Virus record (IMG/VR): IMGVR_UViG_3300044216_003480
Location: 1-24,197 of that record
DNA length: 24,197 bases
DNA from: a virus
Lineage: Duplodnaviria; Caudoviricetes
Direction: 5' to 3' (one strand)
The notes beneath the pieces were generated by a model. The model was given only the letters and a program-made list of their open reading frames with translations, ran no database searches and was not told the origin of the DNA. Shown here in pieces: positions 1,762-19,235 of the stretch. Position 1 is the first letter of the stretch; each line of letters starts with the position of its first letter. The translations under genes were made by a program, and so were the position numbers.

Positions 1762-2391
1762 ATGACTAAGAAAATAATAGGCGAGAGCCTAGTTATCAAC
1801 CGACCAAATTTCGCTATGTCGAAACTGACGGTTGAGGGATTAACTCCTTTAATTCAAAATAAAATGAAAGAGGCGTTAATTAAAGAAATGGAAGATGTGC
1901 GTTCAGGTAAGGCTAATAAAGTCAATGCCAAAAGAACTGCTATCGACCCGAAGAAAGAATATCTAAAATCCGCTTATCAACAAGAAGGTGGTGGTTTTGG
2001 ATTTCCAGCGTCAGCATTTAAACAATGTGCTGTAAGGGCAGGTAAAGCTCTAGGTTTGGCTATGACAGACGCTAGAACTTTATTTTTTGTTCTACCGACG
2101 GCTCCTGATGGTGAGTGTGTTTCTATAAAGAGCAAGAAACCTATACTCAGGAAAGACCCCGTTAATGTGAAAACAGGTAAAGATTTAAGATTTAGACCTG
2201 AGTTCAGAGATTGGACTGCTGAATTGCTTGTTAAGTATGACAAAGATAGAGTCACACTTGAACAAGTTGCTAATTTACTAGACCACGGTGGTCAAACCGT
2301 TGGTGTAGGAGAATGGAGACCTGAAAGAAATGGCACATTCGGAATGTTTAGAATTAAAACTGATGGGAGAGTAAATGAAAGTAAGTCTTAA
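1762..2391 (+). CDS. Cas7/RAMP-like RNA-binding protein (209 aa), candidate effector of the adjacent pentamer array (Vipr-like)
   Basis: GAGAGG SD before ATG 1762. RAMP-like motif order: N-terminal strand LTVEGLTPL, helix motif FPASAFKQCAVRA, RFRPEFRDW strand, and C-terminal glycine-rich loop GVGEWRPERNGTFGMF. No other cas genes in the window. Recognised by eye only. Confidence 0.75.
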   Translation: MTKKIIGESLVINRPNFAMSKLTVEGLTPLIQNKMKEALIKEMEDVRSGKANKVNAKRTAIDPKKEYLKSAYQQEGGGFGFPASAFKQCAVRAGKALGLAMTDARTLFFVLPTAPDGECVSIKSKKPILRKDPVNVKTGKDLRFRPEFRDWTAELLVKYDKDRVTLEQVANLLDHGGQTVGVGEWRPERNGTFGMFRIKTDGRVNESKS

Positions 2392-2884
2392 ACCTAAGAA
2401 GATTAATCTTAAACAAGAACTTACTAATGTCAAAGAAAAGTATGGGTCGTTATCGGCTCATACTGTCTTGGCAGAGGCTAAGAAGAAATCTAGTCCTTTA
2501 CATAAATTTTTTGAGTGGGACGATAGTATTGCTAGTCACAAGTGGCGTTTGCACGAGGCTAGAATGTTAATCGCTACTGCAAAAGTGTATGTGAATGAAC
2601 AGGTTTCTCCTGATACCGTCAGAGCATTTGTAAGTTTGAAAACAGATGATGGCAGAAGATTTGTCGATACATCTGAGGCTATGACTAATGAGGATTTGGC
2701 TCTTGAATTATTTGATGGTCTTAATAATAGAATGTCAAATATAAGAGACCAATTAATTAGCTTTGGTGTTTATCAAGGCACAATTAAAGACTCATTAGAA
2801 CAAGCTATGAAACCGATAGCTAAACAAAAGGCTAAGTTAGAAAAAACAAATCGTGATTCTAACTTAACGCCTAAGTTGGCTTAA
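2375..2884 (+). CDS. Conserved phage protein (169 aa, LHxxFEWDD motif), probable accessory of the Cas7-like gene
   Basis: Overlaps the Cas7-like gene by 17 nt with a GGGAG SD; motifs SPLHKFFEWDDSIASHKWRLHEARMLI and RAFVSL; lies directly before the array. Confidence 0.7.
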   Translation: MKVSLKPKKINLKQELTNVKEKYGSLSAHTVLAEAKKKSSPLHKFFEWDDSIASHKWRLHEARMLIATAKVYVNEQVSPDTVRAFVSLKTDDGRRFVDTSEAMTNEDLALELFDGLNNRMSNIRDQLISFGVYQGTIKDSLEQAMKPIAKQKAKLEKTNRDSNLTPKLA

Positions 2885-2889
2885 AGTTT

Positions 2890-2951
2890 ACGCTGAACGA
2901 GTTTGGCTGATTGTCAGTCCCCATATTTCTAAGCTGAACTCGTTTATGCGT
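2890..2951 (+). promoter_or_regulatory. Leader hairpin preceding the array
   Basis: ACGCTGAACGAGTTTGGCT (2890-2908) pairs with AGCTGAACTCGTTTATGCGT (2932-2951): 19 bp, three G-U pairs (implying + strand RNA) and one bulge. Confidence 0.65.
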
Positions 2952-2956
2952 CGCTA

Positions 2957-3328
2957 GGCAGTCGTGGTATCGTAAGGTGGGTTGCGTTAAGTTGGGGTTG
3001 GTTATGGCAGTCGGGGTTAGTTATGTCGTGTTCCGTTTGGGTGCGTCAGTTATGGCGGGGTATGTGTCGTTCTGTTCCGTTTCGGTCAGTTGTGTCATGT
3101 CGAGGCAGTCCAGGTGGGGTTGGTTGCGTTCTGTCACGTTGAGGCAGTCGTGGTAACTCTTGGCAAGGAGAGGCTCGTTACGTCATGTTCGGGTGAGTTA
3201 AGTTCAGGCAGTCTAGGAGAGGTTTGTCAAGGTGTTTCAAGTTGAGTTATGGTCTGTTGGGGCAGTTGTGGTTTGGTCTTGTGGGGAACGGAGAGGTAAG
3301 TCTCGTTGAGGTCGGGCAGGTATGGAAG
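2957..3328 (+). ncRNA. Non-coding array of GKY-NN pentamers in units delimited by GGCA; candidate guide-RNA array (VIPR-like)
   Basis: Separators at 2957, 3006, 3045 (GTCA), 3104, 3143, 3207, 3261, 3315. Unit lengths 49, 39, 59, 39, 64, 54, 54, all 5n+4. Of 66 pentamers, 57 start with G[G/T][C/T] and all 66 have G/T at position 2. No ORF in the track; G/T-rich against an AT-rich background. The repeat structure is certain; the RNA function is inferred. Confidence 0.85.
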
Positions 3329-3334
3329 TATAAT
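3306..3334 (+). promoter_or_regulatory. Candidate sigma70 promoter overlapping the array 3' end
   Basis: TTGAGG (3306-3311), 17 nt spacer, TATAAT (3329-3334). Confidence 0.4.
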
Positions 3335-3420
3335 AAAATAACAATTTTGGCTAGGGCTAACCCTATCCCCCTATAGTGTATAATCTCTGGGTTAGTCTTA
3401 GTCTTTTAAAAGGAGAGGAA

Positions 3421-4770: not shown

Positions 4771-4863
4771 CAGAGGGTTGTGTTGCTAAGGCCCCTCTGA
4801 CGCCTAAGTCCGTACAAACTTCTGTTCTAATGGCAAGGAGAATCTACTGCCGAACAGGCAACA
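4771..4863 (-). ncRNA. Candidate structured cis RNA (multi-stem junction plus pseudoknot)
   Basis: Complementary pairs 4781-4786/4858-4863, 4822-4827/4852-4857, 4832-4835/4848-4851, 4789-4792/4802-4805 and the crossing pair 4771-4777/4793-4799, in a GC-richer intergenic gap. Strand inferred from the flanking genes. Confidence 0.4.
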
Positions 4864-4867
4864 AAAA

Positions 4868-5101
4868 TTATACGCCGTTACAATAAGGGTCGTAACCAGT
4901 TTCTGCTAAAAAATAACCAATCTCAACAGCAGCGTCCTCTGCACTCAATTCAATGCCTGAAGATTTCTGCAGATTATCTGCATATCGTCCTGCTAATTCT
5001 TCTTGATTGTCCCAACCAAAAGCATCAGCTTTTTGAAATGCCTCTATCTTAGCTGGGTCTTCGACTATCTTTTCGTAACATTCACGCATATATCTACCCA
5101 T
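4868..5101 (-). CDS. Hypothetical acidic protein (77 aa)
   Basis: ORF track; AAGGAG SD on the minus strand. Confidence 0.75.
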   Translation of the reverse strand: MGRYMRECYEKIVEDPAKIEAFQKADAFGWDNQEELAGRYADNLQKSSGIELSAEDAAVEIGYFLAETGYDPYCNGV

Positions 5102-5137
5102 AAATTCTCCTTAATCAGTAATATTTATTACCGATAG

Positions 5138-17294: not shown

Positions 17295-19235
17295 TTAACT
17301 TTGTCCCATTCCTATAAGAGGTATAGGTCCTTCTGGTTTATCTTTATCATCTTTTGGTTTTGCTCTTTCTCTGTCTTGGTTTTGTGCTAAAGCTTGTTGA
17401 TATGGATTTGCAAATTGTGTATATGCTCCAATACCTGCAGCTAGGCCACCTGCTACTGGGTCTTTTGGTGCTGCGTAATCACTAACAGATATAGTATAGC
17501 CTGTTTTATATTGTGGTAGCATTTGTTGTGTAGCTGCTAAAACACCTAATGGCCTATCTATTTGAGCTCGTTGTTGTGCAAATCTTCTGGATAATTCGTC
17601 TTGTCTTAAACCTCTTTGAATACCACCCATAGACATAAGTTCAGCTCTTTCTCTTTGACCTAATTCTTGCTGCTCTCTACCTAAAGCTCCTACTTGTGCT
17701 CCGTATGCAGCGAGTTGTCGTCCTATATCTCTAGATAACCCTGTTTTTTGTAATCCTAAATCTAATAAATCTCTAGATACATCACCTCTGGCTCCAAATT
17801 CAGCGGTACCCAATCCTGATTCAAAAGCAGCTGCGTCTTGTAAAGCTCTTCTAGAAAACTCAGATTCTCTTATAGCTTTATCAAGTGCAGACTCAAAGCC
17901 TCCTGCTCTTATGCCAGCTAGTGCTTCACCTAACCCTCTAGCGAGAGCTGACTGTCTTTCGGCAGCTGTTAGTTTGGCTCTAGAGCCGAAGGCAGACTCG
18001 CCACCTCTAGCTATATTTTCTGCTCTTTGTGCTATCTCATCCATCTCGCCTCTTTTTAAGACATCAGAAATAGTTTGTTGTACTACTTGTTCTTCAAAAG
18101 GATTAAAGAAAGCACCTGCAGACCTTGGGTCAAATCCAAATAATGAGGCTCTTTGTAAATCTCTTGCAGATGGACCTTGTTGCCCAAAAGAGCCCAATAA
18201 ACCACCTAATCCAGCTCCTAGTTGTCTTTGTGCTTCGCCGAAAAAAGGCTCTGCCATACCTGCTGCACCTCTTTCAGCAGCAACACCCTCTCCGATAGCG
18301 TCGCCATACGCTTGTAAAAAAGGTTGAAAACCTCCAATACCTTGTTGTGCTCCAAGTAAAGCTGCTTGTTCTAGACCTGCTAGTCCAGCAGTTTGTTCTA
18401 GTGGTACATCTGCTTGTATAGCTGCTCTAGTTGCTTGTTGTAGTTGGTTAATAAATCCAGGTGTATCTGCATCACCAAAATATAATTGTCTTACTAAAGG
18501 GTCTACGTCATATTCCTCTGACCTTTGACCAATTAATACTGGGTCTCTCCTAGGCATATCGTTAGAAAAAAGAGTTGGGTCTAACGGAGGTGTTGCTGGA
18601 GGAACTCCAGATGCAGGCTCGCCTGGAGTTTCTGTCTGTTCTGTAATTAAATCACCTATTGGCGGTTCCTCTTCTGATGGTGGTGTTTCACCTGCCTCTC
18701 TTTTTACTATTGCACCTGTATCAGGGTCTAGTTTTGACTGTTTCAATACAGCAGTTTCTATAGATTCTTGAGAAGATGGGGGGCTAAATCCTATTGTTTT
18801 TTCAGGAAAAAAACCTGTACGAGTTGGTTCTCCAGTATCTAAATTAATAGCTGGTGGCATAACTTGTGCTTGCACCATACCAGGTGCTACTTTAGGCATA
18901 GGTGGTTGATACAGTCGCTCACCATTTGGGCCTGTAAAAAATTGACCTCCAGGTTCTACTCCTGGTGGTAGGCTTGCCATATCTCTACGGAATTGTTCCA
19001 TCTGTTTTTCGTTTTCACTTCCAAAGTTATCATTAGGTCTTGGATTAGCAATTCTCATACTTCTAGGTAAATCGCTAGGTAATGGTGCTTGTGTAATTAC
19101 TGGCATGCCAAATCTGTCCGTTGTAAACGTCGGGCCTGGGAATCCTCTGCCTCTTGGTGGTCTTGCTGGCGTTGGCACAACTGGTCCTGGCATACCTTTT
19201 ATTCTTTGCAGTATATCTCCTAATTTTCTTATCAC
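17295..19235 (-). CDS. Probable DNA pilot/ejection protein (646 aa)
   Basis: Pro-rich N-terminus, Gln/Ala/Gly-rich body with FFNPFEEQVVQQT and AFGSR motifs seen in phage pilot-like proteins. Confidence 0.55.
   Translation of the reverse strand: MIRKLGDILQRIKGMPGPVVPTPARPPRGRGFPGPTFTTDRFGMPVITQAPLPSDLPRSMRIANPRPNDNFGSENEKQMEQFRRDMASLPPGVEPGGQFFTGPNGERLYQPPMPKVAPGMVQAQVMPPAINLDTGEPTRTGFFPEKTIGFSPPSSQESIETAVLKQSKLDPDTGAIVKREAGETPPSEEEPPIGDLITEQTETPGEPASGVPPATPPLDPTLFSNDMPRRDPVLIGQRSEEYDVDPLVRQLYFGDADTPGFINQLQQATRAAIQADVPLEQTAGLAGLEQAALLGAQQGIGGFQPFLQAYGDAIGEGVAAERGAAGMAEPFFGEAQRQLGAGLGGLLGSFGQQGPSARDLQRASLFGFDPRSAGAFFNPFEEQVVQQTISDVLKRGEMDEIAQRAENIARGGESAFGSRAKLTAAERQSALARGLGEALAGIRAGGFESALDKAIRESEFSRRALQDAAAFESGLGTAEFGARGDVSRDLLDLGLQKTGLSRDIGRQLAAYGAQVGALGREQQELGQRERAELMSMGGIQRGLRQDELSRRFAQQRAQIDRPLGVLAATQQMLPQYKTGYTISVSDYAAPKDPVAGGLAAGIGAYTQFANPYQQALAQNQDRERAKPKDDKDKPEGPIPLIGMGQS

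Follow-up and report, generated by a model that had tools for sequence, protein, structure and literature searches.

Organization of the locus

The locus lies within a 24,197-nucleotide virus record (IMG/VR IMGVR_UViG_3300044216_003480), the whole of which was analyzed and is referred to here as the window. It contains genes for a terminase small subunit, exonuclease VIII, a Sak4-like protein, a primase-polymerase and virion proteins, one of which (621 aa) is 32–40% identical to proteins of phage DSL-LC04, Roseobacter phages CRP-901/902, and Pelagibacter phages HTVC023P/027P; the RNA runs that match pieces of it are metatranscriptomes from seawater, marine or marsh samples. The features of the locus are listed below, with L numbers denoting related Vipr loci.

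1762..2391, plus strand: vipr, encoding a RAMP-fold protein of 209 aa (phrog_4652; SUSP1 Vipr homology; structure model)
2375..2884, plus strand: accessory gene in the vap position, 169 aa (phrog_15946), overlapping the vipr stop
2885..2955, plus strand: leader hairpin with a stem of about 19 bp and a 23-nt loop (-25.5 kcal/mol, z -3.8)
2957..2960, plus strand: first GGCA step, closing the leader (parse)
2961..3009, plus strand: U1, predicted guide; 9 pentamers and a 3' GGCA; identical and always first in L001–L004 and L007–L010
3010..3048, plus strand: U2, predicted guide; 7 pentamers and a 3' GTCA; also present in L007–L010
3049..3107, plus strand: U3, predicted guide; 11 pentamers and a 3' GGCA; limited to the window and L002–L004, and absent from L001
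3108..3146, plus strand: U4, predicted guide; 7 pentamers and a 3' GGCA; common to L001–L010, with one change in the last NN
3147..3210, plus strand: U5, predicted guide; 12 pentamers and a 3' GGCA; limited to the window and L002–L004
3211..3264, plus strand: U6, predicted guide; 10 pentamers and a 3' GGCA; 20/20 NN letters the same across L001–L010
3265..3318, plus strand: U7, predicted guide; 10 pentamers and a 3' GGCA; common with L001, with one change in the first NN
3319..3328, plus strand: terminal stub of two pentamers (parse); the L005–L010 arrays also end in a two-pentamer stub
3349..3403, plus strand: 15-bp hairpin followed by a T-run, a possible terminator or processing site

The vipr and accessory genes form a two-gene operon that ends 72 nt ahead of the array; an in-frame GTG at 1717 would extend the vipr product to 224 aa. 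No Pfam, NCBIfam or PADLOC family was matched here, and no other cas gene was found among the window ORFs that were scanned. The sole PDB sequence match for Vipr at E≤1 is the Vipr of Escherichia phage SUSP1 (36pp_D, E 8.3e-12), a match that reaches E 2.3e-13 with a 64-sequence profile, and BLASTP against the SUSP1 gene product gives 27% identity over 152 aa (E 2e-16). A structure model (pLDDT 86), built on the database representative P0001, which is one residue off the window ORF, matches the Csm3/Cmr RAMPs (Foldseek E 2e-5), and aligns with a RAMP over 153 residues at an rmsd of 3.8 Å (VIA-align Z 10.2). Residues of SUSP1 Vipr that contact RNA are named in 10.64898/2026.04.26.720927, and those that correspond in the alignment are R138 (R145 in the window protein), D177 (E184), W178 (W185), R179 (R186), and K82 (K95); R145, W185 and R186 are invariant in 64/64 Vipr sequences. 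H17 is N33 in the window protein, and E71/M72 are S84/A85.

The accessory gene adjoins vipr in 17/17 close loci and in most distant loci. Its product has no similarity to SUSP1 vap1 by BLASTP, no PDB fold match at E≤0.001 (model pTM 0.41), and no PDB sequence match of note; family searches returned no family name, and matches were limited to unnamed viral relatives. Two long hairpins with 23–25 nt loops flank the array, and the loop of the downstream one is partly conserved in the L005/L007 lineage. At the leader position L005 also has a hairpin, of another sequence (z -5.6). The leader hairpin is not universal: the arrays of L013 and L017 begin directly after the vap stop. In the downstream hairpin, 15/15 pairs are kept between two lineages with three two-sided and six one-sided changes, a comparison of four rows that are in effect two independent sequences; its folding z of 0.36 is not significant by itself. 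Promoter and terminator scans gave 7 and 2 sites respectively, compared with 5.3 and 1.3 in shuffles.

The array is a chain of pentamers in an unbroken register

The region had been described in a first-pass annotation as 4-nt separators joined to runs of GKY-NN pentamers, and every unit of that exact parse was reproduced, together with its coordinates, its position counts, and the GKCA-GTY-NN-GG opening of 7/7 units. Parsed in this way, units start at 2957, 3006, 3045, 3104, 3143, 3207, 3261, and 3315, each has a length of 4+5n (n = 9, 7, 11, 7, 12, 10, and 10, with n = 2 for the terminal stub), and the register is unbroken by any indel across the window array. Among the 66 pentamers of U1–U7, position 1 is G in 62 and position 3 is C or T in 61, and position 2 is G or T in all 66 (T in 39, G in 27), never A or C. 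Positions 4 and 5 have near-maximal entropies of 1.93 and 1.95 bits; the parse agrees with the view that fixed and variable letters are interwoven at 5-nt intervals, unlike CRISPR blocks. By scaffold class, the pentamers comprise 36 GTY, 21 GGY, and 9 others. The periodicity check against shuffled sequence that had been proposed gave a chain score (5-/4-nt steps) of 43; none of 2000 dinucleotide shuffles exceeded 9, and the score was 3 on the minus strand and outside the array, and the array autocorrelation has maxima at lags of 5, 10, and 15 (0.41–0.44). The units abut directly with no tails or ribozymes between them, single-unit RNA structures are no better than those of shuffles (z -0.8 to 1.4), and there are neither Rfam families nor tRNAs in the window. 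Unit starts are usually a GTY followed by a GG pentamer, and the last NN is skewed to AT or AA; off-consensus scaffolds are also non-random, with GGA mostly followed by GA, both in window units U5–U7 and in related arrays.

Short ORFs of 50–59 aa overlap the array, as might be expected if it were a tandem repeat made by slippage, or low-complexity coding sequence without a role as RNA. However, no single conserved frame is compatible with a 5-nt period and -1 steps, and the NN letters have almost the highest possible entropy. The array also accompanies vipr in distant phages, and different genomes have whole units in common. Such an origin is already refuted by the comparative data, and we give it almost no credence.

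The locus has the features of a staggered VIPR system

VIPR guides are composed of GGY/NN pentamers and are read with a one-base skip, mostly at the wobble position (10.64898/2026.04.26.720920). In the 'staggered' class of arrays the guides overlap by 1 nt (10.64898/2026.04.26.720920, fig. S18 legend), and because each GGCA followed by G corresponds to a 1-nt overlap, the 4-nt step in the window is the same as the published staggered layout. Small-RNA sequencing confirmed the ribozyme-type and single-guide architectures in that study, and not the staggered one, and guide lengths there are 9–16 pentamers, compared with a center of 10 in the clade described below. Like staggered VIPR, the window locus belongs to a phage, combines vipr and an accessory gene with intergenic pentamers whose units overlap by 1 nt, and is without cas genes or CRISPR repeats; it differs in its GTY-majority scaffold. 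The locus thus has a Vipr-family RAMP gene, minimal composition, adjacent pentamers (consensus GKY), and a viral location, the features by which VIPR is recognized, and we assign it to VIPR with high confidence. The array lies directly behind a Vipr-related gene, and therefore likely encodes VIPR guide RNAs.

We compared the window locus with three other systems. The type II VIPR of SUSP1 (PDB 36pp; 10.64898/2026.04.26.720927, 10.64898/2026.10.15.759431) has a homologous Vipr and the same vipr-vap-array order, and the E/D-W-R of the G-loop and the thumb arginine are kept in the window Vipr. SUSP1 guides are about 100 nt long, with linkers between them and a conserved 3' pseudoknot tail of about 40 nt, whereas the window units abut and are tail-less, and the accessory gene is unrelated by BLASTP; because it is without 3' tails, the window locus is not type II. 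The non-canonical VIPR-like arrays in the available passages of 10.64898/2026.10.21.760802 likewise have a period of 5, a degenerate or altered trinucleotide, and an adjoining Vipr-like fold, but the motifs named are GAC, CAC, WGT, and TGH, and GKY is not named in those passages, as distinct from fig. S10, which covers 21 clusters. Finally, the Cas7/Csm3/Cmr proteins of Class 1 CRISPR-Cas systems share the RAMP fold, and analogy suggests that a filament of protein on guide RNA may be common to both; the window differs in having no repeat-spacer array (direct repeats with contiguous spacers), its specificity being interleaved.

Related arrays and base composition

We parsed 87 Vipr loci, consisting of the best 80 of 374 IMG/VR loci and 7 GenBank phages. 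Defining a clade by at least 65% Vipr identity gave 29 non-duplicate clade arrays and 42 arrays outside it. Arrays were called beside 16/17 close Vipr loci; the parser called no array near the vipr and accessory genes of L015 and L136. GGCA steps occur in 29/29 clade arrays and in 35/42 outside arrays, the latter including those of Gordonia phages ODay and Pipp, Mycobacterium phage Donkeykong, and cyanophage Cy-LDV1, and the GGCA separator grammar is therefore a common VIPR architecture and no peculiarity of the window. The GenBank annotations of Pipp (L113, 2563–2832) and Donkeykong (L114, 1444–1830) treat the VIPR array as a gene for a hypothetical protein.

The window array is unusual mainly in that GTY exceeds the canonical GGY. 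The 1985 pentamers of the clade arrays include 812 GTY, 672 GGY, and 279 HGY, compared with 304 GTY, 1549 GGY, and 73 HGY among 2191 pentamers outside; CGY, TGY and AGY are thus frequent in clade arrays (279/1985), and pentamers with G at neither position 1 nor position 2 are rare. As the GC content of the locus rises, the share of GTY declines (Spearman rho -0.82, n=62), and it does so too when only outside arrays are considered (rho -0.67, n=35), noting that loci are not phylogenetically independent in either case. Three loci (L156, L158 and L161) belong to a separate AT-rich Vipr lineage with 39–44% identity and have GTY-majority staggered arrays, the scaffolds of L156 being even more degenerate. 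These Vipr proteins keep the histidine corresponding to SUSP1 H17 and their arrays are 61–69% GTY, and the change of H17 to N33 therefore does not explain GTY use. Because the GTY share falls with GC and these AT-rich, histidine-keeping outsiders are GTY-rich, the shift to GTY is a continuum tied to base composition and not a private code, and it is still constrained, in that the window array has neither A nor C at position 2.

Whole units are gained and lost in a fixed order

From 38 clade loci we obtained 119 distinct units in 81 families, although the caller misses or splits a few; their lengths center on 10 pentamers. L001, with a Vipr 99% identical to that of the window, has U1, U4, U6 and U7 in common with it together with three other units; L002–L004 carry the window array and may be from the same population. 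The 27 distinct arrays contain 92 unit pairs that are seen in two or more of them, and conflicts in unit order arise solely from one family that is present twice in one array (L140). This colinearity indicates that whole units are gained and lost in a fixed order, as the first-pass annotation had anticipated for related phages, with insertion and deletion not separable by the data; shuffling of units was dropped as an explanation, the order being colinear. L007 (5844–5961) and L001 (2054–2112) hold three paralogous units of 11 pentamers, two of which lie side by side within a single array; several of their NN are different, as though they were versions that follow a changing target.

Two further proposals did not survive the comparison. 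One treated the separator as the opener of the unit that follows. However, the rare GTCA step stays behind U2 whichever unit comes next (L007–L010 have a different next unit), and in L005/L006 a GTCA step follows another unit, while U6 elsewhere has GGCA before it. The separator moves with the upstream unit in 2/2 informative cases, and is therefore a 3' end and not a unit opener. The other proposal predicted that substitutions would be biased to NN. Orthologous-unit changes relative to allowed diversity are 0.11, 0.20, 0.31, 0.17, and 0.12 for positions 1–5 respectively in 16 non-independent unit pairs, such that K and Y (0.20 and 0.31) change more than the NN letters (0.17 and 0.12), and NN is not the fast-changing part within a unit. 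Interleaving and unit turnover thus stand from the earlier interpretation; the separator role and NN bias do not, and the upstream vipr-vap operon had been overlooked.

These comparisons also bear on the possibility that this VIPR cassette is decaying or drifting neutrally, with GGY worn down to GTY by AT-biased mutation and the guides left without targets. Both the correlation of GTY share with low GC, within and outside the clade, and the lack of targets found (see below) are as this would predict. Drift toward AT alone would supply A at position 2 as well as T, but only G and T are seen there (66/66); moreover, the register is free of indels, vipr and vap are intact, and unit exchange is ongoing between 99% identical phages. 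Among phages with 85% identical Vipr, U6 has kept 20/20 NN letters in four scaffold variants, showing that its scaffold changed while the NN letters did not. We consider decay very improbable.

RNA coverage and reading register

RNA contigs were compared from 6 of the 17 runs that match parts of the stretch. In run X5, a 272-nt contig matches 3043–3314 with no differences at a depth of 11.7, the only other full-length match in 20 kb being 248 nt at 19219, and a contig from run X17 matches 3180–3340, also with no differences; contigs from the remaining four runs match parts of the vipr gene, the vap gene or the leader. The X5 and X17 array contigs cross separators, which suggests a precursor, noting that strand and ends are not shown by these contigs and that DNA carry-over is possible. 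Elsewhere in the window, a region with a small minus-strand ORF (4813–5114) is matched by zero-difference contigs from runs X3 and X4.

If guides are read with a skip at the wobble position, then NN pairs should resemble codon positions 1–2. We took 645 inner NN from the 81 unit families and compared their log-odds with those of two reference gene sets. The correlation with codon positions 1–2 is 0.73 for window genes and 0.79 for DSL-LC04 genes, compared with -0.38 and -0.41, or -0.12 and -0.02, for the other frames, and positions 1–2 are the best frame in 1000/1000 and 979/1000 family bootstraps, although the signal is driven largely by AA/CC/GG/TT enrichment. This fit gives indirect support to a one-base skip. 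Outside the clade, no frame was preferred by 129 units compared with AT-rich references, and the strand-consistency of units was not in excess of shuffles (p 0.91).

Searches for natural targets

Collection scans were by exact match under the one-skip rule, using window units U3, U5, U6, and U7, with the short units U1, U2, and U4 left out. There were no exact matches in IMG/VR to all 20 letters of U6, the inner 20 of U5, or the inner 18 of U3. The inner 16 letters of U7 gave 8 unrelated matches in IMG/VR, none reaching the last NN, and a degenerate pattern of an 11-unit family from relatives gave 4 matches. These are spread over 3 unrelated elements, none with another guide match close by; two of them are 20/22 matches in a phage portal-like gene and are at chance level for a pattern of about 18 letters. 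Searching metagenomes with 18 letters of U6 yielded 39 heterogeneous matches, of which 2 extend as compared with 2.4 expected (1 in 16). The inner 20 letters of U5 have a single match in GTDB (22/24), in an Erysipelotrichales MAG and in a putative nagB gene, and this was rejected because about one chance match is expected by a rough estimate and the host is implausible.

Searches that allowed mismatches gave similar results. With 97 guides against 0.97 Mb of kin-phage DNA at a threshold of at least 85%, there were 3 matches, compared with 4 and 2 for shuffled guides; U6 and U3 with up to 3 mismatches had no match in 50 records. Skips of 0–2 against kin phages and self gave no excess over shuffles, and self-targeting was not seen. 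A 20/22 match of an L152 guide in L008 was equalled by one of two shuffle runs. We thus find no natural target above chance, and this is weak evidence of absence because the collection scans were exact-match only, whereas 80% matches were accepted in 10.64898/2026.04.26.720920.

An alternative explanation is that the locus is VIPR but the array is one long unprocessed RNA, or is read in another or no-skip register, so that the units are genetic and not RNA-level modules. This accommodates the RNA contigs that span several separators (3043–3314 and 3180–3340), the staggered layout being without sRNA-seq confirmation in 10.64898/2026.04.26.720920, and the failure to find one-skip targets. Contigs are, however, blind to short products, the codon 1–2 fit favors a one-base skip, and skips of 0 and 2 likewise gave no targets above shuffles. 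We regard this alternative as improbable.

Discussion

We consider it very likely that this array is the guide-RNA cassette of a marine phage VIPR system with a staggered architecture, which would act by one-skip silencing of a competing mobile element. Counted against the guide reading are the lack of a target above chance, the presence of only 21/66 canonical GGY pentamers, and the contigs that cross separators.

A SUSP1-like mode of action, with a filament, a skip code, and transcriptional repression, is proposed here from the published accounts of the SUSP1 system. Vipr would coat each unit with one subunit per pentamer, holding the G-K-Y letters and presenting the NN pairs to double-stranded DNA, such that every third target base would be skipped; U would be tolerated at position 2 of the pentamer, with its share drifting with the AT content of the genome. 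The -1 register step at each GKCA|G would break the 5-nt phase of the filament and mark the guide end, which is probably formed by cutting or trimming at the unprotected GKCA|G junction. Guides of this type likely silence genes of a competing mobile element.

The VIPR system and the staggered layout are already known from 2026 preprints. The repeats named in the text of 10.64898/2026.04.26.720920, as distinct from its logos, are YNNGG, NNNGG, YNNNG, and NNNNG and not YNNGK, fig. S12B lists no GGY>GUY substitution, and the term GGCA is not in the available supplement passages of that preprint. The term GTY is absent from the available passages of 10.64898/2026.10.15.759431 and 10.64898/2026.10.21.760802, as is GUY from those of 10.64898/2026.10.15.759431. 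The published text passages available do not contain the GKY scaffold or its relation to GC content, the assignment of the separator to the 3' end, or colinear cassette turnover, and the figures, logos and data tables may hold the clade.

A broader proposal is that a widespread marine phage clade has a tail-less VIPR that accepts U in the G2 pocket, splits a single transcript into guides solely by -1 steps, and gains and loses whole cassettes at GKCAG junctions in an unchanging order. This would constitute a CRISPR-like adaptive memory operating without Cas1-Cas2 or Cas6, with 81 guide families directed against marine mobile elements not yet in databases. We put this forward tentatively, as a possibility that we judge somewhat doubtful.

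A 209-aa effector with tail-less, multiplexed guides of 39–64 nt would be a more compact tool. For the biology of VIPR, the clade is useful for addressing how staggered arrays are cut into guides and whether the G2 position needs a G. It is also useful for the question of guide acquisition, as its 27 distinct arrays, with units in conserved order, represent a population-level record.
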